DNA of 64,000 bases from Alphaproteobacteria bacterium (GTDB lineage: Bacteria > Pseudomonadota > Alphaproteobacteria > CAAHEQ01 > UBA3637). The position numbers and the translations under genes are program-made. The stretch lies in NCBI GenBank assembly GCA_015062245.1, contig SUVA01000002.1, positions 25,234-89,233 on the forward strand. Reading direction: 5' to 3'. Position 1 is the first letter of the stretch. Every line of letters starts with the position of its first letter. Shown here piece after piece: positions 2,819-46,690 of the stretch. Under the pieces are notes generated by a model. It had not been told where the DNA came from, did no database searches, and was given only the letters and a program-made list of their open reading frames with translations.

Positions 2819-3859
2819 TTATTTATCCTTTTGGGCTAATTCTTCCAATGGCCAACGGGGTCTGGCTTTAAAGTCAAAAGCATCCGTTAAACCGGCATTT
2901 AATCGTTGTAAACCGGCCCATGCAATCATCACGCCATTGTCGGTACACAGGCGAACGGGCGGTGCCGAAAAGTTCATTTGATGTTTTTGTGCCACATCCT
3001 CTAACATTTGACGCACGGCCGTGTTGGCGGCGACACCGCCCCCGACAACCAAGTCTTTGGCATTGGGAAAATCCTTTTTAAATAAACGGATGGCATGATT
3101 TAACCGATCACGCATTTGTTCCACCACGGCATATTGAAAGCTGGCACACATATCGTTTTGAAAAGTTTCGGTTATTTTACTTTGTTTATCCACAATAACC
3201 CGAACGGCTGTTTTTAAACCCGAAAATGAAAAGTCGCAATTATCACGTCCTTTCATGGGAATGGGTAATTGAAAAGCCTTTGGATTGCCCAAAACAGCCC
3301 TTTTTTCCAAATTGGGTCCGCCCGGATAACCGATATCCAACATCTTGGCCACTTTATCAAAGGCTTCACCGGCCGAATCATCAATAGTGGCGCCCAACTT
3401 TTTATACTTGCCAACACCCATCACTTCCAATAATTGACAATGACCGCCCGAGGTTAAAAGCAATAAATATGGAAATTCCACATCATTGGTCAGCATGGCT
3501 GTCAGGGCATGGCCTTCCAAATGATTGACCGCTATAAAAGGCAGGTTATGGCAAAAAGCAATGGCTTTGGCACTCATCACCCCCACCAAAACACCGCCGA
3601 TTAAACCGGGGCCGGCGGCCACAGCCACACCGGATAAATCCGAAAACTTGATGCCGGCCTGATTCATACATTCTTGAATCAACACATCACACTTTTCCAA
3701 ATGGGCCCGTGCGGCAATTTCGGGAACAACGCCACCGAAACGGCGGTGTTCGTCATATTGGGACCACACAACGGATGCCAACACTTCACGCCTGTCATTT
3801 ACCAAGGCGCAAGCTGTTTCATCACAACTGGATTCAATGCCAAGAACAATTTTTGTCAT
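2819..3859 (-). CDS. tsaD: tRNA N6-adenosine threonylcarbamoyltransferase TsaD
   Basis: Kae1/Gcp/TsaD family motifs (GIESSCDET, HxxGH). Confidence 0.95.
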   Translation of the reverse strand: MTKIVLGIESSCDETACALVNDRREVLASVVWSQYDEHRRFGGVVPEIAARAHLEKCDVLIQECMNQAGIKFSDLSGVAVAAGPGLIGGVLVGVMSAKAIAFCHNLPFIAVNHLEGHALTAMLTNDVEFPYLLLLTSGGHCQLLEVMGVGKYKKLGATIDDSAGEAFDKVAKMLDIGYPGGPNLEKRAVLGNPKAFQLPIPMKGRDNCDFSFSGLKTAVRVIVDKQSKITETFQNDMCASFQYAVVEQMRDRLNHAIRLFKKDFPNAKDLVVGGGVAANTAVRQMLEDVAQKHQMNFSAPPVRLCTDNGVMIAWAGLQRLNAGLTDAFDFKARPRWPLEELAQKDK

Positions 3860-3895: not shown

Positions 3896-6151
3896 CTAAA
3901 TGTTCTTTTTTAAATTGGCGATTTGGGTGTTTGGGATATTTTCACCCGATTGAATTTTGGATACGATTGTTTGAACCTGTTCGGGGGTATAATGTTGATG
4001 GACAAAGTCAATGCGGTAAAAATCGCTTTGAACTTGTTCACGCAATTTTCCCATATAAAAAGGTTTACTTGAAATCAAGGTTAAAGCACAGTCTTTAATT
4101 TTTGCCCAATAAGAATCTGTTGCTTTTTTAATTGGAATAAAACAGGTTTGTTTTTGACAGTGTTTACAATTGTTTTTTATACAGTTGGCACTTTGGAATA
4201 AAGGAATATCCTGATAAACAACAGCCACGGTACTTATCGGACTTTTGTCATTGACGGCCATCATATTTTCCATTGTGTCCTCTATGGGTAAAGTAATACG
4301 TGAGGCGTTCATTTTCTGTGCCATTAAAACGGCTTGACTGTTCATGGTATAAAAGGCGTTGTCAAAGCTTAAATCAATACCCTTTTCGGGCAAAACATTT
4401 AATCCCCAAGGATTGCCAATTTCCCATTTACGATAGCCCAAGTTCAATAAATCTTTGATGATTTTATGGAAATTTTGTGAATTTCGGGCAATACTGGGTA
4501 AAGCCAAACGTACTTTGTTTTTGGGCAGTTTTTTAATCTGTTCAATGTTTATATCTGGGGTTAAAAGAACAATCACTTCATGAAAGGTTGATAAATCTGT
4601 TTGATTCAGGCAAATTAAATTATCCGTTTTTATCAGCCACTTTGTTGGTTGTTTTTTTCTGGGCTTTGGATTTTGAAGTTCTGTCTGTTTTTCTTTGATT
4701 TCAATGCGTTCATATAAATCACGGCGCAATTGATTTAAAACGGATGCCGGCACAAATAAACCATTGTTGTTTTCAATTTTGATATTTGGTTTAAAGTCGG
4801 TATCTTTATATTTTAAAAAGGCCTGTAAAACACTGTCATGGGCTTTTTGCGGATTTTGGGCCACATCAAAATGGCCATTTGATACAACCGATTGCCCACA
4901 GGCCGAAGCCGTTATTTTATCCGTTTCAATTTGAACCATTACATCAATGGGGTATCGGATTTTAAATTCATTGGGCTTTGGCTTTTCGTAATGATAGGTG
5001 GCTTTTACCTGACCGCTGGATGCCAAATAAATTTGCGTTCCTTTATCAATAAAGGGTGCGTTGTTCGGCAATTGTACTTGTACTTTTTGATGCGCTTTTG
5101 CTTCAAAAACCTGCCGACCGTTTGATATAATTTCCTGCACCGAAAAGCCAAAAGGTTTTTCCGTTCCCGGTATATCCAATTGCAAACCGTCATATTTTGA
5201 AAAAGAGTGCTTTGGGGTGAAGGTCATATATTGTTTGAAAACTTTTTCAGCCTGTCCGATGGGCAATCCTCTGTGTCCCACAAAATCGGTATCAATGATA
5301 TCATTGTTTTTGCCCAACAAATGAAAGGTTGTCCATGGGCGTGAAAAGATTTGTTTAATGTTTTCAGCTTTTGATTTATCCGCCCCTTTACCATCCAAGA
5401 TATGGCGATAATAATCCACAACGGCCGCCACATATAAATCTTTTTTCTTGCGTCCTTCTATTTTTAAAGAACAGATGGGTAATTTTAAAATATGTTCTTG
5501 CAACGCCATATCTTTCATGGAAAATAAATGAGCCTTTTTTTCGCCCCATTGGAATAAAGCGCGACACGGATAGGCACATTTGCCACGGTTGGCACTGCGC
5601 CCCGATTCTATGGATGAAAATTGGCACAAACCGCTGTAGGCATAACACAAAGCCCCATGCACAAAAATTTCAATTTCCAAATCCTTAATGGTGGCAATTT
5701 TTTCAATTTCGGGTAAAGTCAATTCTCGGGCCAAAACAACCCGTGTAAAGCCTAATTTTTTTAAAGCCAAAGCCCCGTCCACATTATGAACGGCCATTTG
5801 TGTGCTGGCATGCAGTTTTAAATTCGGATAGTGTTCTTTGATGATATGGGCCACACCGATGTCTTGCAAGATTATACCGTCCACTTGACAGGTATTACAA
5901 ACATCCAAAGTTCGCATCAATTCATCCAATTCTTTTTCCTGAATCAATGTATTGATGGTCACATAAACACACTTGTTTAAATGATGTGCATAGGCGGTCA
6001 ATTCGCTGAGTTGTTCGGGTGTAAAGTTGGTGGCGTTGGCACGTGCTGAAAAAGATTTTAAACCCAAATAAACGGCATCTGCCCCATAATAAAAGGCGGC
6101 ATACCCTGCATCTAAATCACCGGCCGGTGCCAAAAGTTCGTGTTTTTTCAT
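3896..6151 (-). CDS. peptidase U32 family protein (long form)
   Basis: U32 collagenase-like N-terminal domain (ELLAPAG...GADAVY...CAYPCR cysteines); start placed at MKKHELL ATG 6151; ~750 aa is long for the family. Confidence 0.8.
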   Translation of the reverse strand: MKKHELLAPAGDLDAGYAAFYYGADAVYLGLKSFSARANATNFTPEQLSELTAYAHHLNKCVYVTINTLIQEKELDELMRTLDVCNTCQVDGIILQDIGVAHIIKEHYPNLKLHASTQMAVHNVDGALALKKLGFTRVVLARELTLPEIEKIATIKDLEIEIFVHGALCYAYSGLCQFSSIESGRSANRGKCAYPCRALFQWGEKKAHLFSMKDMALQEHILKLPICSLKIEGRKKKDLYVAAVVDYYRHILDGKGADKSKAENIKQIFSRPWTTFHLLGKNNDIIDTDFVGHRGLPIGQAEKVFKQYMTFTPKHSFSKYDGLQLDIPGTEKPFGFSVQEIISNGRQVFEAKAHQKVQVQLPNNAPFIDKGTQIYLASSGQVKATYHYEKPKPNEFKIRYPIDVMVQIETDKITASACGQSVVSNGHFDVAQNPQKAHDSVLQAFLKYKDTDFKPNIKIENNNGLFVPASVLNQLRRDLYERIEIKEKQTELQNPKPRKKQPTKWLIKTDNLICLNQTDLSTFHEVIVLLTPDINIEQIKKLPKNKVRLALPSIARNSQNFHKIIKDLLNLGYRKWEIGNPWGLNVLPEKGIDLSFDNAFYTMNSQAVLMAQKMNASRITLPIEDTMENMMAVNDKSPISTVAVVYQDIPLFQSANCIKNNCKHCQKQTCFIPIKKATDSYWAKIKDCALTLISSKPFYMGKLREQVQSDFYRIDFVHQHYTPEQVQTIVSKIQSGENIPNTQIANLKKNI

Positions 6152-13306: not shown

Positions 13307-14047
13307 TTAATCATCCTTGTTTGTTTTTTTGTTTGAAATGATTTGGTGAAACTGAATTAAAGCAATGGCGAACAGTAAGGGCAAAATTGCCTCACCAAAT
13401 TCTTCCAAAATTCTGAAAGCAAATCGGATGGGTTCATCCAATTGTTTGCCATAATGTTTGGCGTATTTTGACGGAAAGCGATCACAAAATTGTGTTGCAA
13501 TACCTAAGCCCCCAAAAGTCGCTATTGTCCAATAAAACGGTTCACGTTTGAAAAACCCGACAAACATTTTTTTAAAGTTTTTAATCAATAACCATAATAT
13601 TATTGATACCACTGATAAAATCAAAAATCCTGAAATAATTTTTTCATGCAAAGGATTGTTCGGGTTTGTGAAAAAACGGATTTTTATGGCGGTTGTATCG
13701 TGTTGGGTCAACCAATGTTGTAATCCCATTTCTCTTAACAGGGCAATCAACCACAAAAATACCAATGCCAAAAATGTTTTTTGCCTGGGGGTGTTTATGT
13801 AATCTTTTGCATATAAGATAACAGCAATAAAAGAAACAAAGTAACATAAGTAAGTTGTAACTTCGGAAACACCTGTTTTTTCAACGTCAAAAACACCCAA
13901 AAAACTGCGGAATAAATAGCAGGATGCAAAAAAGATAGTCAACAAAACGGCACTGAATATAGGTGAAAATGCATAATTTTGTATGCCGTATTTGTTTTTA
14001 TAAGTAATTGTTTTTGTTGCCATTTTTGTTCCTTTCATAAAAAGCAC
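13307..14047 (-). CDS. hypothetical integral membrane protein
   Basis: Multi-TM hydrophobic ORF, no recognizable family. Confidence 0.45.
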   Translation of the reverse strand: MLFMKGTKMATKTITYKNKYGIQNYAFSPIFSAVLLTIFFASCYLFRSFLGVFDVEKTGVSEVTTYLCYFVSFIAVILYAKDYINTPRQKTFLALVFLWLIALLREMGLQHWLTQHDTTAIKIRFFTNPNNPLHEKIISGFLILSVVSIILWLLIKNFKKMFVGFFKREPFYWTIATFGGLGIATQFCDRFPSKYAKHYGKQLDEPIRFAFRILEEFGEAILPLLFAIALIQFHQIISNKKTNKDD

Positions 14048-14115
14048 ATAACATTTTATGTTAAAAATTTTAAAAAGTCAATTTATCTTTATTTGTTTTG
14101 TTTTTGTAAAATGTC

Positions 14116-14144
14116 TTGCATTTAAAAAAAAAGTGGAGTATAAT
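14116..14144 (+). promoter_or_regulatory. sigma70-type promoter of tRNA-Pro (TTGCAT-17 bp-TATAAT)
   Basis: -35 TTGCAT 14116-14121, 17-nt spacer, -10 TATAAT 14139-14144, about 9 nt before the mature tRNA 5' end. Confidence 0.6.
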
Positions 14145-14153
14145 AGGCACATT

Positions 14154-14230
14154 CGGAGTGTAGCGCAGCCTGGTAGCGCACTTGTCTGGGGGGCAAGGTG
14201 TCGTGGGTTCAAATCCCGCCACTCCGACCA
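14154..14230 (+). tRNA. tRNA-Pro (anticodon GGG)
   Basis: Manual cloverleaf: acceptor CGGAGTG/CACTCCG, D-arm GCGC-AGCCTGGTA-GCGC, anticodon loop CTGGGGG, T-arm GTGGG-TTCAAAT-CCCGC, encoded CCA. Confidence 0.88.
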
Positions 14231-14404
14231 CTAAACACAAACGCCGAAAAATCGGCGTTTTTTCTTTTATTTTCAAGCACTTGCAAGAGTTCGAATGTTG
14301 AAAGCTAAAAAACAGCCATTTTCTTGAATTTACGAACTCTGGAACCAAAAAATCCTTATTTTTCAATACCTATCCATCGGGAAGCTAAAACTACTATCCC
14401 AGAA
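14221..14404 (+). repeat. cassette repeat R1 (contiguous with genuine tRNA-Pro 3' end)
   Basis: Shares ACTCCGACCACTAAACACAA, hairpin, GTTCGAAT, CAGCCATTTTC..TTTACGAACTCT..CCAAAAAATCC..CAATAC..GGGAGCTAAAA..TCCCAGAAA blocks with R2-R4. Confidence 0.8.
14241..14266 (+). terminator. rho-independent terminator after tRNA-Pro (also first element of repeat R1)
   Basis: acgccgaaaaatcggcgt hairpin followed by TTTTTTC. Confidence 0.6.
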
Positions 14405-14406
14405 AT

Positions 14407-15156
14407 TTACAACTTTTTATATATACTCATAACATGAGTAGAACAACCTATCATATCTGGACGTTCTGCTATCTGTAATTGTATTTGTTTGATTTTATTA
14501 AAGCTTGTTTTATCTAACTTATTTGTATATTCTTTTAATATTTCAAACAAGCCATCCAAGGATACATCGGATATGTGTTTTAATTTCGTCTTAGAAACCA
14601 GTTTGTGAAAGTCATTTACAAAATATGTTTCATAGATATCTTTTTCTACATGCTTTTTCTTAAAAGCGTTATAATTACCCTTTATCAATCCAAAACGGTA
14701 AATTATCGGTGTATTGGTTAGATAGTTAAATAACACTATTCCATTTTTCATACATATTCTATATGCTTCTTTAATTGCTTGAATTTTCTCATCTTCTTTA
14801 AATAAATGGGAGATAGGGCCATTTACAAAGACCACATCAAAGCAATCCGATTTTATAGATTTTAATTTTACAATATCACCACATAAAGTATCAAAATTAG
14901 AAGTTTTAATGCGTTTTGAAAGTCTATCCAAATTTTCTTGAAATAAATCTATCGCTGTAACGTGTTTTGCAAATTTAACTATCTCCGGCGAATAAGACCG
15001 AATTCCGGCTCCAATTTCTGCAACAGAGTTATGTTTCTTAATATACTTTTTTAGATAGTTAATTGTTACAAATCGTTCTAATAAAACATTGTTTTCTTCA
15101 ATTTTTTCACTTTTATTGCGTGTTTTATAAAACTTATATAGATTTTCTTTATCCAT
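14407..15156 (-). CDS. class I SAM-dependent methyltransferase (cassette 1)
   Basis: Motif I VAEIGAGIRSY, downstream D/E and VVFVNGPISH motif IV-like. Confidence 0.75.
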   Translation of the reverse strand: MDKENLYKFYKTRNKSEKIEENNVLLERFVTINYLKKYIKKHNSVAEIGAGIRSYSPEIVKFAKHVTAIDLFQENLDRLSKRIKTSNFDTLCGDIVKLKSIKSDCFDVVFVNGPISHLFKEDEKIQAIKEAYRICMKNGIVLFNYLTNTPIIYRFGLIKGNYNAFKKKHVEKDIYETYFVNDFHKLVSKTKLKHISDVSLDGLFEILKEYTNKLDKTSFNKIKQIQLQIAERPDMIGCSTHVMSIYKKL

Positions 15157-15211
15157 GATATACTCCCTTTAGAGCAGTTCTATCACAAATGGTATAAAAA
15201 AGCAATATCAA

Positions 15212-15416
15212 AGTTCGTGAATTGCGCATCCGTTCCGACCACTAAACACAAAGCATCAGAAATGGTGCTTTTTTATTTATTTTACAAGGTGTTGTGCGGG
15301 TTCGAATCTCCAACCGTCAAAATCAGCCATTTTCTTGAATTTACGAACTCTGGAACAAAAAAGTCCTTTAAAATCAATATAGGAAGTCTGGGAGCTAAAA
15401 TTACTGTTCCAGAAAA
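15212..15416 (+). repeat. cassette repeat R2
   Basis: Begins AGTTCGTGAATTGCGCATCCGTTCCGACCACTAAACACAA (degenerate tRNA T-arm/acceptor 3' half); same block order as R1. Confidence 0.8.
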
Positions 15417-15422
15417 AATGGC

Positions 15423-15451
15423 TTGACTTTCCTTATCTTTATATGTAAACT
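15423..15451 (+). promoter_or_regulatory. candidate sigma70 promoter for NUDIX/HAD cassette (TTGACT-17-TAAACT)
   Basis: Located directly after R2; AAGGAG RBS at 15472 and ATG at 15484 follow. Confidence 0.4.
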
Positions 15452-15483
15452 GGTTCTAGATTTTTCTAAAAAAGGAGTTTTAA

Positions 15484-15912
15484 ATGTCTGAAAATACTGT
15501 TTTTGTGGGATGTGGTGTTATTTTGCTTAACTCAAAAGGTCAATTTTTAATGATGAAACGCACCAGTAAACACGGGCAAGGGACTTGGGGCTTACCTGGT
15601 GGGCACATGGAATTTGGTGAAACATTTGAAACAGTGGCTATTCGTGAGGTTTCTGAAGAATTAGGTATTGAAATTCATAATCCGCACGTTTTAGGCGTTA
15701 CCAACAACTTCTTTCCAAATGAAAACAAGCATTCTGTTAGTATTATTTTGATTGCAAGGTTAGAAAATCAAGAACCAAAGAACATGGAACCACATAAATG
15801 TTCAGAATTGCGTTGGTGTGACGATTGGGAACATTTACCGGCTCCTGTTTTTATCCCTTATAATAAGTATATTTCCTTAAAACAAATAAGAGAATATTTT
15901 GAAAGTAAATAG
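15484..15912 (+). CDS. NUDIX hydrolase (cassette 2)
   Basis: NUDIX box GGHMEFGETFETVAIREVSEELGI. Confidence 0.85.
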   Translation: MSENTVFVGCGVILLNSKGQFLMMKRTSKHGQGTWGLPGGHMEFGETFETVAIREVSEELGIEIHNPHVLGVTNNFFPNENKHSVSIILIARLENQEPKNMEPHKCSELRWCDDWEHLPAPVFIPYNKYISLKQIREYFESK

Positions 15913-16615
15913 CCATATTCCGAATTTAAAGACCAAAACACATCTGATTTTTGATTTAGATGGGACCTTGATTGATTCTTTAAATATCTGGAATGTCATT
16001 GATCAGGCTGTTTTAAAAGGCCTAAACATTGTTGTCCCTTTGGATATTCTTCAACAAGAGCATACGATTTTTTTTAAAAAAGAAAATAGCTATATTCATT
16101 ATGCACAATTTTTAATTAAAAATCATCACTTAGAAATTACACCAGAAGAATTTCTGAAGATGCGTTGGCAAATAGCAGATAGCATTTTAACAGAACAAGT
16201 TGATTTTAAAAATGGTGTTGTAAAGATCCTTAAAAAATTAAAAGAACAATATGTACTTATATTAGCAACCAGCTCTACAAAACATATTCTATCGATTTAT
16301 GCACACCAAAATCAAAAAATGGCAAAAAGGTTATGTTTAGAAACTTTCTTTGATATGATATTGACACAGGAGGATATTCCTTTTGGAAAGGGAAAGCCTG
16401 AACCAGATATTTATTTGACTGTTCTGAAAAAATATTCTGTTAAACCTGAAAAATGCCTTATTTTTGAAGATTCATTGGAGGGTGTACAAGCCGCTTATCA
16501 CTCTGGCATAGATGTCATTCATGTAAATGATCCATTTATTCCTTTTGAGGATAAAAAATCAATACAGAAATATACCCCTTATCATTTGAAGAAATGGTCA
16601 GATTTTAAGATATAA
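15899..16615 (+). CDS. HAD-superfamily hydrolase (beta-phosphoglucomutase-like; cassette 2)
   Basis: Motif I LIFDLDGTLIDS; 14-nt overlap with NUDIX gene suggests an operon. Confidence 0.8.
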   Translation: MKVNSHIPNLKTKTHLIFDLDGTLIDSLNIWNVIDQAVLKGLNIVVPLDILQQEHTIFFKKENSYIHYAQFLIKNHHLEITPEEFLKMRWQIADSILTEQVDFKNGVVKILKKLKEQYVLILATSSTKHILSIYAHQNQKMAKRLCLETFFDMILTQEDIPFGKGKPEPDIYLTVLKKYSVKPEKCLIFEDSLEGVQAAYHSGIDVIHVNDPFIPFEDKKSIQKYTPYHLKKWSDFKI

Positions 16616-16625
16616 AATATTTTCT

Positions 16626-16832
16626 GAGCTCGTGAATTGCGCATTCATTCCGACCACTAAACACAAGTCGTCTCAAAAGGCGACTTTTTCTTTATTTTAC
16701 AAGCACTTATAAAAGTTCGAATGTTCAACTGTCAAAATTGGCTATTTTCAGCCATTTACGAACTCTTGAACCAAAAAATCCTTATTTTTCAATACTTGTC
16801 CTCTGAGAGTTCCAAACTACCATCCCAGAAAA
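16626..16832 (+). repeat. cassette repeat R3
   Basis: GAGCTCGTGAATTGCGCATTCATTCCGACCACTAAACACAA + hairpin gtcgtctcaaaaggcgac + conserved blocks. Confidence 0.8.
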
Positions 16833-16900
16833 TAGGTAATATTTTCAAATTTGTTTACAATATTATTGCTATTTTTGAAATAACATAGTATTCTAACCAT

Positions 16901-18562
16901 ATGTTAAGGCCTATAAAAGATTTTTTTATATTACAAATATTAAAAAAGAATAAAACACAGTTACAATTTCTTCTGCTCTTTTTGATGTTCTTCTTTTCTG
17001 TTTTGCAAGTGTATACTGAACCAGTACTTTTTAATGTTTGTTTTCTTTCTTTTTTTGCATTTGTTTGGTTTCTATTAGCGATAAAAAGACAGGTTATTTT
17101 TACTTTATATTTTTTTCTTGTTTTTTCCCCTGGATGCCTGCACTTCGTCTACCAACTTATATTTCGTCATCCAATAGATGATGCATCCATTGAGCAGGTA
17201 TTCATCTCTAATATTGCAATTAGTTTTGCTTTTTTAAAATCTCATCCTATATTGCTATGTTGTATTCCGTTAATTTTACTGCTTTTTGTACTTTTTTCGC
17301 ATATTTCGCATTTAATTGCTTCTCTCCAAATTTCATCCAGTAAGTACATACGTTTTTTAAGTACGTTGATGCTTTTGTGGCTAATAGTATTTTTATTGTT
17401 CTCTCATGGAAGTATATATCGTGTTGTCTTTGACGGATATCTTTCCTATAAAGCCGACTGTGCTTTTGTAGCGGATATAGTTGAAAAAAAACTCAACACT
17501 ACTTTTTCAAATGTAAAAATATCAGAGGATCAAACGGTTATTGTCGTGATAGGGGAATCCGAAACAAGAACGATGTTATCCTTGTATGGATATCAAAAAG
17601 ATACAACACCCCATTTATCTGACTTAAAAGATAAACTGATTGTTTTTTCTGATGTGTTCTCTCCACATTCCCATACAGCGACTGTTTTGGACAAAGCTTT
17701 ATCCCTAAAATCATTTAGTGACACTCCGAATAATTTTGGATCTGTTATTGATTTGTTTTCTCAAGCAGGGTTTGAAGTCTGGTGGCTTTCAACTCCACCT
17801 TTAAGAGACGTATGGTCTGGTTCAACAATGGCTATTTTATCAAATGCTGCACATCATAAATTTTTTCTAAATAAAGGTATATCATGGGATAGACATGACA
17901 TTGACTTATTACCAAAAATCAAAGAAGCAATTCTTCAACCCACTCCCAAAAAATTAATTTTTGTACATTTATTAGGGAGTCATGGAGCATATACGGATAG
18001 ATATCCAGAATCATTACGACGTCTTGATTTGACACCATATGAGAATACTATTTATTCAACAGATTACTTTATGAATGAAATAATCAATTTTTTAGAAAAA
18101 GAAAATATAAAAAACACGAAACTTCTTTATTTTTCGGATCATGGTGATGCACCACAGTGTCAATGTCATACAGAAGCGTTAGGATATCCAGAAATGTTTG
18201 AAGTCCCTTTTTATCTTTGGCTCAGTCCTGATATTAGAAATAAGTTTAAGTTAAATAAAGATATGCTTACAAAACCCTATAATACAGAACATTTGATTCA
18301 CTCGATTGCTGATTTGGCAAAAATTTCATCGGATGAAATTGATATACAAAAAAGCATTTTTAATCAAAATAGGAGAGGATTATATATTATGTTAGATGGT
18401 AAAAAATATGCTATTTCTTCGGATTTAATCTTTGAAGTTTCTCATCCTATAACAAGAGGAAAGGTAGTTGATTTTTCTGAGCATTACTTAAAAATCAAGT
18501 GGTATTCTTCTGGTGAGATAGAAACATGGGAAAATAAAAATTCAATTTGGCAAAAAATATAA
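16901..18562 (+). CDS. sulfatase-family membrane protein, phosphoethanolamine/phosphoglycerol transferase (EptA/OpgB)-like (cassette 3)
   Basis: Five N-terminal TM helices followed by alkaline-phosphatase/sulfatase-fold domain (VIGESETR.., DHGD motifs). Confidence 0.7.
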   Translation: MLRPIKDFFILQILKKNKTQLQFLLLFLMFFFSVLQVYTEPVLFNVCFLSFFAFVWFLLAIKRQVIFTLYFFLVFSPGCLHFVYQLIFRHPIDDASIEQVFISNIAISFAFLKSHPILLCCIPLILLLFVLFSHISHLIASLQISSSKYIRFLSTLMLLWLIVFLLFSHGSIYRVVFDGYLSYKADCAFVADIVEKKLNTTFSNVKISEDQTVIVVIGESETRTMLSLYGYQKDTTPHLSDLKDKLIVFSDVFSPHSHTATVLDKALSLKSFSDTPNNFGSVIDLFSQAGFEVWWLSTPPLRDVWSGSTMAILSNAAHHKFFLNKGISWDRHDIDLLPKIKEAILQPTPKKLIFVHLLGSHGAYTDRYPESLRRLDLTPYENTIYSTDYFMNEIINFLEKENIKNTKLLYFSDHGDAPQCQCHTEALGYPEMFEVPFYLWLSPDIRNKFKLNKDMLTKPYNTEHLIHSIADLAKISSDEIDIQKSIFNQNRRGLYIMLDGKKYAISSDLIFEVSHPITRGKVVDFSEHYLKIKWYSSGEIETWENKNSIWQKI

Positions 18563-18575
18563 ATTTATTTGCTCT

Positions 18576-18783
18576 GAGTTCGTAAATTGCGCATTCACTC
18601 CGACCACTAAACACAAAGCATCAGAAATGGTGCTTTTTTCTTTATCTTACAAGGCCTTGTTCGGGTTCGTATGTTCAACTGTCAAAATCAGCCATTTTCA
18701 ACCATTTACGAACTCTTGAGTCAAAAAATCCTTTGTTTTCAATACCTGTCCCTTGGGAGCCTAAAACATAAATCCCAGAAAAT
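18576..18783 (+). repeat. cassette repeat R4
   Basis: GAGTTCGTAAATTGCGCATTCACTCCGACCACTAAACACAA; hairpin identical to R2 (agcatcagaaatggtgct). Confidence 0.8.
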
Positions 18784-18822
18784 AGACCTAAAAATTTAAT
18801 TTATTTTTCCTTACAAAATATG

Positions 18823-18851
18823 TTGACATTAGCGTGATTTTTTGATTAAAT
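18823..18851 (+). promoter_or_regulatory. candidate sigma70 promoter (TTGACA-17-TTAAAT) for small cassette ORF
   Basis: Consensus -35 and acceptable -10 with 17-nt spacing directly after R4. Confidence 0.4.
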
Positions 18852-18884
18852 GAAATCATTATCAATTTTAGTGAAAGGAAAAAA

Positions 18885-19100
18885 ATGTTTAATAATCGAC
18901 CTCGAGTAAGGGTTGCTTTTTCAAAAAAGTCTATTCAAAAGATAAAAGAAGCAATAGAAAATCTTAACTCTTTGCAACCAGTTTTACCCCTTCCTAAAAA
19001 AGAGTCAACCAGAGAAGAATGGCTAGAAAGACAACATAAAATTTTATCTTATCAACCTCCACGTCCTGTATCTTTTAGGGGTAGACAAAGGGGTGAATAA
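18885..19100 (+). CDS. hypothetical small protein (cassette 4)
   Basis: 71-aa ORF with GGA-rich RBS region, bounded by R4 and partial R5; no homology recognized. Confidence 0.3.
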   Translation: MFNNRPRVRVAFSKKSIQKIKEAIENLNSLQPVLPLPKKESTREEWLERQHKILSYQPPRPVSFRGRQRGE

Positions 19101-19123
19101 TTTTCATGTAAAACGGTTGGACT

Positions 19124-19160
19124 AAGCTCGTAAATTGTACATCCATTCCGACTATTCTTT
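19124..19160 (+). repeat. truncated cassette repeat R5 (tRNA-3'-end-like part only)
   Basis: AAGCTCGTAAATTGTACATCCATTCCGACTATTC aligns to the first 35 nt of R2-R4. Confidence 0.6.
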
Positions 19161-19214
19161 CTAAGAATAATTAAACTTACAGATAAATTCTCTTGAAAAA
19201 AAGAAAGGAATAAA

Positions 19215-19781
19215 ATGAAAATAGAATGGAAAATTGATAAGTTATTAGCACCTTTACCAGCTGCGCTAGTTTCGTGTGGAACGATGAAAAAAGCGAACGT
19301 TTTAACTGTTTCGTGGACAGGTTTTTTAAACTCTGAACCGTTGATGACCTATGTTGCTATTCGACCTTCTCGCTATTCGTATCGTTTAATTAAACGTGGC
19401 AAAAGTTTTGTTATTAATATTCCTAATAAAAAATTATTACACTGCGTAGATGTATGCGGTCTTAAAAGTGGTAAAGATACAGATAAATTTGCTGAATGTG
19501 GCATAACAGCCGTTGAAAGTAAGATGGTTTCTGCGCCGTCTATTTTAGAGTGTCCTATTTCTATAGAGTGTGAAGTTTGTGATATTTTAAAAAATCCATC
19601 ACATGATGCTTTTATTGCAAAAGTGAAAACTATTACTATAGACGATCAATATATGGAGGGTCGCAAATTTAATTTTGTTAAGGCCGGTTTGATAATGTCG
19701 GCACATCGACAATACTTTGAAGTGGGTGATTTTTTAGCTGATACTTTCTATACAGCACAAGAAAATTCTAAGAGTAAATAA
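19215..19781 (+). CDS. flavin reductase-like (NADH:FMN oxidoreductase, HpaC/RutF family) protein (cassette 5)
   Basis: Flavin_Reduct domain pattern (LVSCGT...NVLTVSW...P...VAIRPSRYS). Confidence 0.75.
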   Translation: MKIEWKIDKLLAPLPAALVSCGTMKKANVLTVSWTGFLNSEPLMTYVAIRPSRYSYRLIKRGKSFVINIPNKKLLHCVDVCGLKSGKDTDKFAECGITAVESKMVSAPSILECPISIECEVCDILKNPSHDAFIAKVKTITIDDQYMEGRKFNFVKAGLIMSAHRQYFEVGDFLADTFYTAQENSKSK

Positions 19782-19886
19782 TATAATTGAAAATCTATGT
19801 CAACTATGAAATAAGCTTTTGTAATTTGCGCAAAAGTAAATCTTTGGATTTTACAAAGTATCAATTGGCGTATGGGAAGAAAGTTT

Positions 19887-20339
19887 TTACTTTTTTTGCT
19901 TATTTCTTTCGGAAAGAGAGTTTTCGTATTTTTCAAAATTTTTAAAAAGAAATATTGTTGGGAAAATCAAAAGAAATATACCCAAAATGATAAGAGGTAA
20001 GGCAAATTTTTCCGGAAACGTTTTTATATGGGAAATGAAATAAAAAAAGATTGTTAAACTGCCCAAAAAAGTTAAAATTTCAGCTGCCAGGTAAAAGTTT
20101 CTGCGACGAATTTCTTCCCATGATTTCCCGAATAAAAGCGGAGTATGACGATATGTGGCAAGGTTTCTGCTCATTAAAGAGAAAAAGAGAAAAATTGGAT
20201 AAAAAGGAATGAATATCCAACCAAAAATATAAATTATTTTATCCGCCCAATTTTTTTTAATAATTTTTTCCCGATGTGTATTAAAAAACGGACCTATAAG
20301 CCAAAGCAAATATATTAGTATTAATAATAAAAACTTCAT
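19887..20339 (-). CDS. hypothetical membrane protein
   Basis: Four predicted TM segments; 4-nt overlap with upstream small ORF, likely co-transcribed downstream of gyrA. Confidence 0.4.
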   Translation of the reverse strand: MKFLLLILIYLLWLIGPFFNTHREKIIKKNWADKIIYIFGWIFIPFYPIFLFFSLMSRNLATYRHTPLLFGKSWEEIRRRNFYLAAEILTFLGSLTIFFYFISHIKTFPEKFALPLIILGIFLLIFPTIFLFKNFEKYENSLSERNKQKK

Positions 20340-20542
20340 TGTTTCTTCTTTTTATGCTTACATTTTTCGCAGGTGCATTTGATATGCTCTTCTTGGCAGT
20401 GCTGATGTTCGGCACTTTGGCACACATTACAGTTTTTGTGGTGGTGCTTTAATTTATTTTTTAACCACTTTTTCGGCCCCTTTAATAACAGCAAGGGGAA
20501 CAATAAAATCGCCACAGTACAACAAAACGGACAAGGACACAT
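20336..20542 (-). CDS. small Cys/His-rich protein (putative metal-binding)
   Basis: 68 aa with CPCPFCC, HHH, CNVC, HQHC, CTCEKC clusters and Lys-rich tail; starts 2 nt after gyrA stop. Confidence 0.35.
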   Translation of the reverse strand: MCPCPFCCTVAILLFPLLLLKGPKKWLKNKLKHHHKNCNVCQSAEHQHCQEEHIKCTCEKCKHKKKKQ

Positions 20543-23736: not shown

Positions 23737-25941
23737 CTAGTTCATCCAACTGCAATCGTTTACCTTGTTTACAATGGACATATCTGTGCTTCCCGCAGAA
23801 CCGCAATAATACAGGTTTTGAATTGTACCAGTGTAAAAACCTTGACAATATGCTTTTTTACTTCCTTGCAGATAGGCATTGGTTATGTTACCCGGTGTGG
23901 AAGCTATTATACAATTACATTCTCCACAACTGGCAAGACCATACTCTCCCCCATAAGCAATCAAAGTGCCAATTGTTGCTTCCCCATACACATTGTATAA
24001 TCCACCATTTTTAATCTCTATTTTAGAAGCCTGTAAAGAACCATCGTTTTGCAAGTTTCCTTTTTCTATTTCTATATTTGTTGCTTCCAATGTTTTGACA
24101 GTACTGTATATGCTGTTTGAATTGAGTATACATGTTTCAGGGGTGAAAACTCCACCTGCTGCTGTTATTGGCCCTGAAAAAATTGAACATGTTATATTTT
24201 TTGCAGAGAGTTTTCCTGAATTGTCTAATCCTTTGGCAGCTTTTACATTTATTTTATTTGTTGCAGTTATTGTTCCTGTGTTTCTTATTGCATAAAGATC
24301 TTTGGATAGATTTCCTGTTTCAAAACTTTCTTCTTCCCCCACTACAGTGATATTGTCGGAATTGATTGTTCCGTAATTTGTAATTCCAACGTTAATCATT
24401 TGAGCACTTGCATCTATATCGGAAATATTTAAAGTTCCTCTGTTAATTATTGAAGCATTCGTGGTAAGAGAATCCGAATAAATTGTTCCGTAGTTTTGAA
24501 CAGAATAAGCATTGTCGTTATTACCATCACTTCTTATAAGAATACTATTGACTTTTAAGGTTTTTCCTTCTGACACTGATACCTGCAGAACAGATTGATC
24601 GGAAAATGATAATTTGCATTCGGAAATGTCTAAATCTTTTTCGACGTTTAATCTGCCGTTATATTTTATGGTTTCATTATCTTTCATTAAAAATGTTCCG
24701 TTGGTCCCCGAACTTTCTTTGTCGAGAACATAACCAGCATCAAGCATTTTCAAACAACATTGATTTTCACCGCATCCATCGTCTTCAACGCAATTATTTC
24801 CATCCAGTTTATAACCTTTTTCACATTTTATCGGCAACCCGCTTTCGTTGCACTCCGTCACATTTGCACCACAAGGCGTGCAGGTATTTCCATTTAAATA
24901 ATAGCCAGTTTGACAGGCTGTTGGTTTGCCCGTTGAATCACAGCTGAGCACACCTGTACCACAGGATGTGCAAGAATTTCCATTTTTATAATAGCCGGCT
25001 TGGCAGGTAAAGCCATTTGAAGTACAACTAGCCACACCTGTTGTCGGACATTGAACACAAGAATTACCGCTTAAATAATAACCACTTTTACAAGAGGTTG
25101 GTTTGCCCGTTGAATCACAGCTGGCCACACCTGTGCCACAGGATGTGCAAGAATTTCCATTTTTATAATAGCCGGCTTGGCAGGTAAAGCCATTTGAAGT
25201 ACAACTAGCCACACCTGTTGTCGGACATTGAACACAGGAATTTCCATTTAAATAATACCCCTCTTCACATTCTGTCGGATTGCCATTTTCATCACAAGTA
25301 ACGACACCTGTGCCACAGGAAGTGCAAGTATTACCGTTTTTATAATATCCTGATTCGCATTCAAATCCATCGTCTTTGCAATCCATACTGTTCTCTGGGC
25401 ATTCAATACAATTACCATTTGACAAAAAATACCCGTCAACACAACCTATCGGATTAAAATCACTGTCGCAAACGGCGTTCGCCGGACATTCCCGAGGTTG
25501 ACTATCTTTATCCGGTGTTGTTGATGAATCGGCCTCAGGAAACTTTAAAAAATAAAAGGTAACATTGCTGGTTGATTCACATTCGTCTTTTGTATATCCG
25601 GCACCTATATCAAATTCAGTCAAAACCCCACACAAAGAAGAACTATTCGTTTTTACATCAATCCAAAACCAATCTTTGTTTTTATCACCAACCCCATTTT
25701 CAATCGTAAATATCGTATCGTAGGGACCTTTTTCCGTTCGTGGCATCCGTTCACCGGCATGCGCATTCATAGAAAGTAAGCGAGAATTTTTAATAGCTGT
25801 CAATCTTTGGGCCAATGTATGGGTTTGGCTTTCCAATCTGGCCTCTTGCCACAGACGAATACCAGCCACCGTAATCAATGCAATAATAACCAATACGGAT
25901 AAAACTTCTAATATTGAACGGCCAAATTGTGCTTTTTTCAT
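23737..25941 (-). CDS. type IV pilin-like N-terminus / Cys-rich GYY-CxxC repeat / beta-helix-like large surface protein
   Basis: GGAG RBS; leader MKKAQFG|RSILEVLSVLVIIALITVAG with G(-1) and E(+5); 59-aa tandem Cys-rich repeats (CxxC..GYYxNGNxC); C-terminal NxGT(I/L)-type repeats; paralog of 30944..33169. Confidence 0.75.
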   Translation of the reverse strand: MKKAQFGRSILEVLSVLVIIALITVAGIRLWQEARLESQTHTLAQRLTAIKNSRLLSMNAHAGERMPRTEKGPYDTIFTIENGVGDKNKDWFWIDVKTNSSSLCGVLTEFDIGAGYTKDECESTSNVTFYFLKFPEADSSTTPDKDSQPRECPANAVCDSDFNPIGCVDGYFLSNGNCIECPENSMDCKDDGFECESGYYKNGNTCTSCGTGVVTCDENGNPTECEEGYYLNGNSCVQCPTTGVASCTSNGFTCQAGYYKNGNSCTSCGTGVASCDSTGKPTSCKSGYYLSGNSCVQCPTTGVASCTSNGFTCQAGYYKNGNSCTSCGTGVLSCDSTGKPTACQTGYYLNGNTCTPCGANVTECNESGLPIKCEKGYKLDGNNCVEDDGCGENQCCLKMLDAGYVLDKESSGTNGTFLMKDNETIKYNGRLNVEKDLDISECKLSFSDQSVLQVSVSEGKTLKVNSILIRSDGNNDNAYSVQNYGTIYSDSLTTNASIINRGTLNISDIDASAQMINVGITNYGTINSDNITVVGEEESFETGNLSKDLYAIRNTGTITATNKINVKAAKGLDNSGKLSAKNITCSIFSGPITAAGGVFTPETCILNSNSIYSTVKTLEATNIEIEKGNLQNDGSLQASKIEIKNGGLYNVYGEATIGTLIAYGGEYGLASCGECNCIIASTPGNITNAYLQGSKKAYCQGFYTGTIQNLYYCGSAGSTDMSIVNKVNDCSWMN
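24958..25312. repeat. near-identical 177-bp tandem repeat (2 copies; diverged copies flank to ~24840-25340) inside pilin-like gene
   Basis: acaggatgtgcaagaatttccatttttataatagccggcttggcaggtaaagcc... recurs at 24961 and 25138 (period 177 bp = 59 aa). Confidence 0.85.
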
Positions 25942-46414: not shown

Positions 46415-46580
46415 GTTTTTTTATCACAGATTGGGGGGTGATTTTAAACAATTGAGGTATGTAATTTGGCTGACGCACAATTTATCCCTCATTATATTCG
46501 GGACCGCCTACGGCGTCCTGTCTACGGGACACGAATGCGTCCCTTGCCACCGGACTCGGCAAAAGGCTTGCAAACAAAAG

Positions 46581-46604
46581 AAAAAAACCTCATTTGATTG
46601 AGGG
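46581..46604 (-). terminator. rho-independent terminator of tRNA-Phe
   Basis: cctca-tttgat-tgagg hairpin followed by T7 on the minus strand, immediately 3' of the tRNA. Confidence 0.55.
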
Positions 46605-46614
46605 CTTTAAAAGA

Positions 46615-46690
46615 TGGTGCCTGGAGACGGAATCGGACCGCCGACACAGAGATTTTCAGTCTCTTGCTCTACCAACTGAGCTATCCAGGC
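46615..46690 (-). tRNA. tRNA-Phe (anticodon GAA)
   Basis: Reverse complement GCCTGGATAGCTCAGTTGGTAGAGCAAGAGACTGAAAATCTCT...GGTCCGATTCCGTCTCCAGGCACCA folds as a cloverleaf; anticodon loop CTGAAAA. Confidence 0.92.

Follow-up and report, generated by a model that had tools for sequence, protein, structure and literature searches.

A tandem array of small gene cassettes behind a tRNA-Pro gene in an uncultured rumen alphaproteobacterium: a candidate case of serial site-specific integration without a resident recombinase

How did a row of unrelated genes come to stand behind a single tRNA gene, with copies of one and the same repeat of about 210 base pairs (bp) between them? This question is raised by a stretch of 64,000 nucleotides (nt) from an uncultured rumen alphaproteobacterium (GenBank assembly GCA_015062245.1, contig SUVA01000002.1, positions 25,234 to 89,233). 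The whole 64-kb stretch is called the window here, and all coordinates refer to it. It contains a tRNA-Pro(GGG) gene followed by five repeats and four gene cassettes (Table 1), a locus which the original prediction, made from the letters of the DNA, had taken for an unrecognised system of cassette accretion. With moderate confidence, the locus is attributed here to tandem accretion of mini integrative elements which lack a recombinase and would have entered by site-specific recombination at the 3' end of the tRNA-Pro gene. What is shown in favour of a site-specific origin is the modular anatomy of the repeat, the succession of left, internal and right attachment sites (attL, internal, attR) along the array, the variability of the arrays, the recurrence of cassettes, the swapping of the core of the repeat, and the lack of a recombinase in cis.

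Repeat search of the window yielded four direct copies of 213 nt (14197-14409, 15208-15420, 16623-16835 and 18573-18785) and a 36-nt repeat family which adds a fifth copy at 19117-19152. This agrees with the predicted count of five repeats behind tRNA-Pro, four of them full and the fifth truncated, as seen with ARAGORN, Rfam, repeat search and nhmmer. An nhmmer profile made from the four full copies and run on the 64 kb recovered R1 to R4 with E values of 2.7e-59, 4.7e-64, 4.8e-65 and 3.9e-68, respectively, and R5 with E = 0.002; no comparable repeat was found with it elsewhere in the window, the next matches being only terminator-plus-T-tail resemblances behind tRNA-Phe and tRNA-Leu. Pairwise identity among the copies in the window is 65-81%. 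The last 8 nt of the tRNA, TCCGACCA (14223-14230), are the core common to all full repeats. Direct repeats of the tRNA 3' end accordingly stand at 15234, 16649 and 18599 as the complete core and at 19147 as TCCGAC, the tRNA itself being intact. The earlier view that R1 begins after the tRNA has therefore to be corrected, as the repeat register starts inside the tRNA and the last 8 nt of the tRNA belong to every full repeat.

Table 1. Position of the array components and of neighbouring or related genes in the window.
Feature	Position	Strand	Evidence and details
238-aa protein gene beside the tRNA	13310-14023	-	190 homologues; no Pfam or NCBIfam match
tRNA-Pro(GGG), anchor	14154-14230	+	ARAGORN; Rfam tRNA 59.8 bits; alignment of 25 repeat copies
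R1, P'-type arm	14231-14409	+	repeat search; nhmmer; terminator scan; alignment; contains CTAAACACAA, terminator hairpin 14239-14260, M2 motif GAGTTCGAATGT, inverted M3 motif ATTTACGAACTC, GGGA/TCCC hairpin
S-adenosylmethionine (SAM)-dependent methyltransferase, cassette 1 cargo	14407-15156	-	Pfam Methyltransf_11/25
R2	15211-15420	+	P arm 15211-15233; core TCCGACCA 15234-15241; P' arm with terminator 15250-15271
Promoter-like site TTGACT-17-TAAACT, ahead of cassette 2 cargo	15423-15451		promoter scan
NUDIX hydrolase, cassette 2 cargo	15484-15912	+	Pfam, NCBIfam
HAD-IA phosphatase, cassette 2 cargo	15899-16615	+	Pfam, NCBIfam; overlaps NUDIX gene
R3	16626-16835	+	P arm 16626-16648; core 16649-16656; P' arm with terminator 16665-16686
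Membrane sulfatase-family protein, CptA/EptA-like (phosphoethanolamine-transferase), cassette 3 cargo	16901-18562	+	Pfam Sulfatase 1e-34
R4	18576-18785	+	P arm 18576-18598; core 18599-18606; P' arm with terminator 18615-18636
71-aa open reading frame (ORF), cassette 4 cargo	18885-19100	+	ORF listing; also a called gene in public contigs
R5	19124-19152	+	P arm 19124-19146; core TCCGAC 19147-19152; then unrelated sequence (repeat search; pattern scan)
Flavin reductase, just beyond the array	19215-19781	+	Pfam
Large protein with pilin-like N-terminus	23737-25941	-	
Large protein with pilin-like N-terminus	58150-59289		

From an alignment of 25 repeat copies, taken from the window and from related genomes, the repeat unit was found to consist of five parts, namely a left (P) arm of 23 nt, the 8-bp core, the invariant CTAAACACAA, a terminator hairpin and a right arm of about 130 nt. 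The left arm comes in two variants, GAGCTCGTGAATTGCGCATTCAT and GAGTTCGTGATTTGTGAGCTGAT, both of which are unlike the true T-arm segment TCGTGGGTTCAAATCCCGCCAY and 3 nt shorter. The terminator hairpin exists in three mutually compensated versions (GTCGTC/GGCGAC, AGCATC/GGTGCT and ACGCCG/CGGCGT) with double, compensatory changes in 4 of 9 pairs; judged from these, it appears to be maintained by selection. In the right arm GAGTTCGAATGT is followed about 45 nt on by its inverted partner ATTTACGAACTC, then by AAAAAATCCTTT..TTTTCAATAC and by a GGGA-N14-TCCC hairpin, and the arm thus holds an inverted GAGTTCG/CGAACTC pair. A third, direct copy of this motif, GAGTTCGTAAAT, is found in the left arm and is the exact reverse complement of ATTTACGAACTC as it stands in R4. 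The attP site of phage lambda measures about 240 bp, and with 213 bp the repeat falls in the classical size range of attP. Terminator-like sites number 6 in the array stretch, compared to 2.4 expected, and the four repeat terminators stand out among them.

Several other readings of the repeat were discarded. As a protein-coding sequence it fails, since a 55-aa ORF in R3 is broken in R1. A minus-strand ORF shared by the repeats of 10 loci was rejected as a gene as well, its reading frame running through the tRNA; this ORF of 70-117 aa (14070-14366 on the minus strand of the window, with equivalents in 9 other loci) is conserved only via the overlap with repeat and tRNA, and it could be called as a spurious gene by automatic annotation. 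Single-stranded DNA of the repeat folds to several small hairpins (z = -1.9 and -2.7) and not to a single imperfect one, which rules out a hairpin of the attC type. Outside the array, the tail TTTTTTTCTTTTGTTTGCAAGCC on the minus strand at 46551-46603, behind tRNA-Phe (46615-46690), resembles the post-terminator stretch of the repeat (profile positions 47-97, E = 8e-4) and has none of the arm motifs. Possibly the cassette site took over the style of native tRNA terminators.

The ends of the arrays were located by a fuzzy pattern search for the left arm plus core. The terminal copy was found to consist of the left arm and TCCGAC(CA) only, in the window as well as in the loci numbered L012, L013, L014, L018, L019, L025, L030, L059 and L109. 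Past this copy unrelated sequence begins at once and contains a different, species-specific terminator, for example CAATGGAAAAATCCTGTCTATCAGGGCTTTTTT in L014 and CAAAAGGGCCTCAATTGAGGCCCTTTT in L019. The resulting order, tRNA-core-P' as attL, P-core-P' for the internal copies and P-core-B' for the last one, reads as the signature of site-specific integration. The P' arm of R1 appears to form an attL-like junction together with the tRNA, and R5 would be an attR-like array end (P-core-B') and not a decayed repeat. As homology breaks at the tRNA 3' end, the exchange is placed within or just left of TCCGACCA. The right arm is considered not to be native to the tRNA locus because it is absent from the distal end of the array, where a native arm would sit. 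Such an anatomy is that of classical att sites of integration at a tRNA 3' end and is precedented, and the idea of an unrecognised mechanism could not be upheld.

To what extent is this arrangement shared by other organisms? All 11 public contigs which encode the cargo proteins of the window are 99.96-100% identical to it and therefore represent one clone from several rumen-type samples, which is silent on the dynamics of the array. A scan for TCCGACCACTAAACACAA in one genome per GTDB species, with true repeats judged by the profile, yielded 20 loci. True repeats were present in 15 of them, from 13 metagenome-assembled genomes (MAGs) labelled Alphaproteobacteria and derived from goat, yak, sheep and roe deer, from cattle rumen and from human gut; the remaining five were chance matches in unrelated phyla. 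In the related MAGs the repeat again lies behind tRNA-Pro(GGG) and once (L029) behind tRNA-Pro(CGG), whose 3' end is identical. Flanking genes differ among the repeat loci, and those upstream of the tRNA are different in every species. An identical, syntenic array, which would have spoken for a static repeat, was not seen among the repeat-bearing species. They share the repeat behind tRNA-Pro, their cargo is almost entirely different and their arrays contain 1-4 or more cassettes, as predicted for cassette accretion as opposed to a static repeat.

The number of cassettes per array ranges from 1 (L018, L019) over 2 (L013 and UBA3768, the latter composed of L021 and L030) to 4 or more, with 4 counted in L014 and in the window. 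An apparent strain polymorphism in UBA3768 proved to be an artefact of contig tiling at 8 kb. Nearly all cargo is specific for one array, the loci containing about 150 ORF families of which almost all occur once. In the relatives it comprises LemA with DUF3137, a Ham1 ITPase, an esterase with an isochorismatase, two periplasmic binding proteins, a GFO/IDH oxidoreductase with a GT4 glycosyltransferase, a PMT_2 glycosyltransferase and many proteins without a family, and it is accessory in type. Recombinase, relaxase or type IV secretion system domains were not among the cargo, which consists of metabolic, envelope or unknown genes only. One repeat-adjacent cargo gene (L026, 1-378) has a type IV pilin-like N-terminus.

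For the window, the predicted identities of the cargo, i.e. methyltransferase, NUDIX plus HAD, EptA-like sulfatase, a small ORF and a flavin reductase, were reproduced with Pfam and NCBIfam, with the limitation that the sulfatase scores 175 bits for the NCBIfam CptA subfamily, under the family cut-off of 404. The 71-aa ORF had no match in Pfam, NCBIfam or PADLOC. Cargo may lie in either orientation. In forward cargo the stop codon is 3-15 nt from the P arm, and reversed genes, like the methyltransferase of the window, have their stop codon abutting the right end of the repeat. That each repeat follows the stop codon of a cargo gene was right for R3, which begins 11 nt past the HAD stop codon, and wrong for R2, which adjoins the start of the methyltransferase gene; this gene is on the minus strand, hence its stop codon abuts the end of R1. 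An own promoter for each cassette had also been proposed. Matches to the promoter consensus were not enriched in this AT-rich DNA (22 compared to 27.9 in shuffled sequences), but a -35-like hexamer (TTGAC, TTGAT or TTGCA) occurs 3-12 nt past the repeat end in 8 of about 12 forward cassettes across species, and a promoter-like TTGACA-17-TTAAAT was seen by eye upstream of the 71-aa ORF.

Some of the arrays deviate from the simple layout. In L012 the tRNA-proximal repeat is split by an insertion of about 90 bp (3545-3635) between profile positions 97 and 98, and a lone right-arm fragment (5941-6001, positions 150-211) lies past the terminal junction. The four repeats of L014 (1634-5873) alternate between two subtypes in the order a-b-a-b, with 91% and 94% identity within the subtypes, and its cassettes 2 and 3 encode paralogous periplasmic binding proteins, which suggests that part of the array was duplicated or that related cassettes were captured more than once.

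A few cassettes recur in other arrays with different neighbours, again as accretion would have it. The gene fam4 is present in three arrays. It has a repeat on either side in L016 and a variant repeat after it in L059, and it lies directly behind the fam10 cassette in L028, where the repeat between fam10 and fam4 has been deleted down to GTCTTGGCTCG and the two cassettes are fused. The fam10 cassette including its repeat has 85% nucleotide identity between L025 and L028. From these comparisons cassettes appear to move as units. In line with this picture stands a neighbour-joining tree of the right (P') arms, in which tRNA-proximal and internal copies are intermixed and the nearest neighbour of an arm is often in another species, as for R3 of the window with R1 of L019.

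Swapping of the core was encountered in a metagenome pattern scan with a loose pattern, which gave at least 120 loci with a true repeat in 7 of the 120 matches listed. The unit of L065 stands directly behind tRNA-Glu(TTC) and has CTGCCA as its core; that of L140, situated downstream of tRNA-Glu(CTC), has TCGCCA, and that of L045 CCAACCA. The GTTCGTAA...TTACGAAC pair is preserved in each of the three, as are the terminator and TTTTCAATAC. Conserved arms around a core which matches the tRNA in use are as expected of a recombination site and are hard to reconcile with a regulatory repeat or local duplication. As a separate observation, only about 130 nt are inserted right after the tRNA in L140 (1378-1545, minus strand), between 18-nt direct copies of the tRNA-Glu(CTC) 3' end, AAATCCCGTTAGGGTCGC; this pair of copies looks like a tiny attL/attR from another integration event.

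In the mechanism outlined in the following, we infer the trans-acting enzyme and its class, the circular intermediates, the role of the arm motif and any present activity. The free element would be a small circle formed by a cassette of about 0.5-2 kb, with its cargo and one attP-like site of about 213 bp, and this site would be composed of a P arm of about 23 nt (GAGCTCGTGAATTGCGCATTCAT), the 8-bp core TCCGACCA and a P' arm of about 180 nt. The strand exchange, inside the core, would be the work of a recombinase whose gene lies at another place, a tyrosine integrase being most likely. Candidate binding sites of this enzyme are the three copies of GAGTTCG(T)AAAT, direct in P, direct and inverted in P'. 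Integration would rebuild the tRNA, for which P' would supply a new terminator, and each insertion would push the earlier ones downstream and thereby build the array. Provided that newcomers enter next to the tRNA, the cassette farthest from it is the oldest. At the array end, P and core would join the original flank and terminator of the tRNA (B'), a junction which would be R5 in the window, and the empty site is predicted to read tRNA-TCCGAC and then TATTCTTTC. A cargo gene would bring its own promoter, with transcription terminated by the hairpin of the next repeat, and recombination between any two cores could free one or several cassettes.

A number of observations weigh against this mechanism. 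No sign of current mobility was seen in the 11 contigs of the organism, in all of which the array is invariant and which are one clone. In L029 a P' arm stands behind tRNA-Pro(CGG) with neither a cassette nor an attR, so that the model needs a deletion there; the arm (5410-5617) is a truncated right arm covering profile positions 4-165, lies directly upstream of recA, and may be an attL-like remnant left by such a deletion. The motif GAGTTCG(T)AAAT resembles the universal T-loop GGTTCRAATCC, but the registers differ, since the motif of the P arm is 11 nt from the core and the T-loop of the tRNA 8 nt. As the left-arm copy is out of the T-loop register, a role of the motif as binding site and its link to the T-loop are speculative. 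No circular junction and no empty-site junction was seen in assembled sequence.

The recombinase and a helper element are missing from the sequences searched, and this is a further weight on the same side. Probes for XerD, IntI1 and resolvase in phmmer gave nothing at E < 1 in the six-frame translated window and about 40 repeat-bearing or related loci, a result to be taken as a lead and not as a database result. Pfam revealed no recombinase among about 40 cargo and uncharacterised proteins, which included 10 otherwise unidentified ORFs of the window, and the predicted lack of an integrase in the window was thus confirmed by both approaches. A helper with the repeat was found neither in IMG/VR, where four pattern scans gave 0, 4, 102 and at least 120 loci and the profile matched 0 of the 4 loci of the second scan and 0 of 222 from the last two, nor by blastn of the repeat in phage and plasmid collections.

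Which other explanations could account for the array? It is unlikely that the repeats of about 200 bp are portable homology, i.e. anchors for RecA-dependent exchange after DNA uptake by transformation, gene transfer agents or vesicles, for which no dedicated recombinase would be needed. Identities of 65-94% over about 200 bp could be enough for homologous exchange, the fusion in L028 shows that deletions between repeats occur, and no recombinase is located near the arrays, all of which would fit. The entry of the first cassette into a naive tRNA locus would however be unexplained, and so would about 10 array ends in which P arm and core are fused to unrelated native terminators, as well as the same arms with cores matching tRNA-Glu or another tRNA. 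Nor would there be a reason for the conservation of the arms across species with fully diverged flanks.

About 25 cassettes in at least nine species each keep a full P-core-P' site with tightly fitted cargo. Units of such regularity would not be yielded by random erosion, not one integrase fragment was seen in the repeat-bearing loci, and the same single-gene cassette recurs in different arrays. These findings make it likewise unlikely that the units are eroded remnants of larger, integrase-bearing islands or prophages at tRNA-Pro, so that the small cassettes would never have been mobile and the array would be inert. Serial tRNA integration followed by decay is nevertheless documented, for example in the tycheposon islands with their partial tRNAs and fragmented integrases (bioRxiv 10.1101/2020.12.28.424599). 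The invariance of the array in all contigs of the organism would agree with such a fossil, as would the messy, N-gapped array of L025 with its partial repeats.

Even less probable is a static regulatory repeat, in which the terminator and the following 130 bp or so would be a native insulator, promoter or small-RNA module spread with tRNA pieces by local duplication. A functional-looking terminator kept by compensatory changes in every copy, the frequent -35-like hexamer after the repeat end and a T-rich post-terminator tail like that behind tRNA-Phe of the window are what such a module might display, but copies within one array are not mutual closest relatives, terminal copies are devoid of the 130-bp part, and the genes lying between the copies have nothing in common and are not the same from species to species. 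Covariation outside the terminator was not found in the repeat alignment. At permissive thresholds the repeat had no Rfam family, the tRNA alone passing and two sub-threshold hits overlapping the tRNA plus its terminator. The swapping of the core to other tRNAs would also be unexplained.

A cluster of attC sites lacking an integron-integrase (CALIN) has same-direction repeats between small, mostly single-gene cassettes and no adjacent integrase in its favour and is very improbable all the same, as the repeat has 213 nt and not 57-141 nt, does not fold to one imperfect hairpin, has by eye neither R''/L''-L'/R' symmetry nor a GTTRRRY/RYYYAAC pair in its consensus, contains a tRNA 3' end and accompanies cassettes with putative own promoters and cargo in either orientation, and as Cury et al., who surveyed 243 alpha-proteobacterial genomes, came upon no integron, In0 or CALIN in any of them, a finding which they called "extremely puzzling" (PMC4889954).

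Serial site-specific integration at the tRNA-Pro 3' end can be compared with several known systems. Cis-mobilizable elements (CIMEs) are integrated elements without integration and transfer genes which have intact attL/attR-type sites (PMC6323972). The cassettes come under this definition, and as in the tandem accretion around the integrative and conjugative elements (ICEs) ICESt1 and ICESt3 of Streptococcus, the array would have been formed by successive integration at one site with a recombinase from another element. Unlike the multi-kb CIME islands, the units described here have 0.5-2 kb with one or two genes, occur in rows of at least four, bring a full attP-like site of about 213 bp with a terminator each, and have the 3' end of a tRNA gene as their anchor; neither a helper ICE nor an integrase was found in the loci searched, and the hosts are uncultured gut Alphaproteobacteria. 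The tycheposons of Prochlorococcus integrate serially at tRNA genes, push older elements inward, leave partial tRNA copies and carry adaptive or accessory cargo (bioRxiv 10.1101/2020.12.28.424599). Serial integration at a tRNA gene with displacement of the older elements, partial tRNA copies at the junctions and accessory cargo are common to both, but a tyrosine recombinase and replication genes are part of the tycheposon itself, whereas the cargo here has no recombinase, replication or packaging hallmarks. Their att sites are typically about 40 nt within the tRNA, and the present repeat extends about 180 nt past it with conserved motifs.

With integrons and sedentary chromosomal arrays, CALIN included, the locus shares ordered, same-direction small cassettes with related sites, variable cargo and a recombinase outside of the cassette. 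In contrast to them its site is not an attC hairpin, its anchor is a tRNA instead of an attI beside intI, its cassettes have putative own promoters as well as terminators and may be inverted, and the IntI1 probe gave no match at E < 1. The integron logic which had been predicted for the repeats was thus recovered in the layout and lost at the level of the hairpin; the resemblance is one of layout and function only, and the locus is not a member of this family. IMEX elements (integrative mobile elements exploiting Xer recombination) and pdif modules are small gene modules between recombination sites, the recombinase being encoded elsewhere in the cell, and their sites are 28-bp dif-like XerC/XerD sites. 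They are similar in relying on a recombinase encoded elsewhere and differ in their target, which is dif and not a tRNA 3' end. A dif/Xer site was rejected for the present repeat: by eye, one P-arm variant is similar only superficially, through TGCGCAT, and the other shows no such similarity.

The islands at the tmRNA gene ssrA of Dehalococcoides are reportedly associated with ssrA-specific integrases and short direct repeats. In PMC3146451 several of them are described in tandem at the ssrA 3' end, with junctions marked by its direct repeat. Tandem insertion at the 3' end of a small stable RNA gene and direct-repeat junctions are features in common, and the islands of Dehalococcoides are larger, while the repeats described here are long and modular and have no integrase present. 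Taken over all these systems, the array is set apart by its tiny units, the long modular site, the built-in terminator, the lack of a recombinase in some 25 cassettes from at least nine species, and the host clade. To judge from its sequence features, the mechanism is best read as a variant of tRNA-targeted site-specific integration with CIME-type accretion and the tycheposon islands as the closest known cases. No description of such arrays in these bacteria was found in the full-text literature, the coverage of which is incomplete, so that this is absence of evidence only.

If serial integration at the tRNA is true, an uncultured, host-associated branch of the Alphaproteobacteria would stockpile single-gene cassettes behind a tRNA by means of long modular att sites and a recombinase acting in trans. 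The cassettes would be self-contained expression units, each bringing a promoter and using the terminator of the site that follows. The cargo in the window includes a phosphoethanolamine-transferase-like gene, the family of which includes the lipid A modifiers EptA and MCR. Arms combined with a swappable core suggest how tRNA-targeting elements could change their target, and a compact recombination substrate of about 210 bp is defined which is experimentally testable. Tools for the detection of islands, integrons or ICEs which are keyed to integrases are expected to miss such arrays. A more far-reaching proposal can be put forward only tentatively, namely that gut and rumen Alphaproteobacteria might possess a dedicated, independently evolved capture platform in the role of an integron, with docking at tRNA genes, a portable site of about 210 bp with an exchangeable core of 6-8 bp, and an unrecognised chromosomal recombinase acting in trans; the system could then be retargeted by matching the core to other tRNAs (Pro, Glu and others).

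The surroundings of the array had been described as two conserved housekeeping regions with the array in between. These regions are not neighbours in the closest relatives, however. In the closest one, GCA_045611705.1 with a GyrA 98% identical, homology to the window ends at 14087 and near 20350, and in a relative with 93% GyrA identity it ends at 19904. Neither tRNA-Pro nor the repeat was found at either position in these two genomes, nor near gyrA in relatives with 98, 93 and 91% identity, and therefore the segment 14088-19903 (5.8 kb, tRNA included) is considered an organism-specific junction, which is backed by independent assemblies. It joins two gene blocks which are at separate loci in the closest relatives (L156, L158 and L159 were compared). 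A rearrangement may have had its breakpoint at the array; alternatively, tRNA and array may have moved as a block. The G+C content is 30-33% in the array, 36% on the SNF side and 45-47% in gyrA. Beside the tRNA lies the gene of a 238-aa protein from a clade-specific family, the neighbour of which in the closest relative is not tRNA-Pro; in L157 a homologue of this protein is encoded next to a tRNA-Thr gene, on its downstream side.

The flavin reductase just beyond the array was probably acquired, since a close homologue outside the clone was absent from the homologue search and the best non-self homologues are at most 51% identical, with displayed source names mostly from Clostridia. A left-arm-like sequence, TTTTGTAATTTGCGCA, is found with 3 mismatches at 19817-19832, 36 nt past the stop codon of this gene; it is not significant alone, and together with the flavin reductase it could represent a fifth, degraded cassette. 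The idea of a defence island was dropped because PADLOC gave only generic, domain-level matches.

Two large proteins encoded elsewhere in the window have a type IV pilin-like N-terminus (EMLGVLAIIGVLSVGG), the same as seen in the cargo gene of L026, with a weak N_methyl motif in one of them. The stretch of about 250 bp upstream of the gene at 58150-59289 (59309-59559) has 73% identity with intergenic sequence next to gyrA (L158, 4592-4833).

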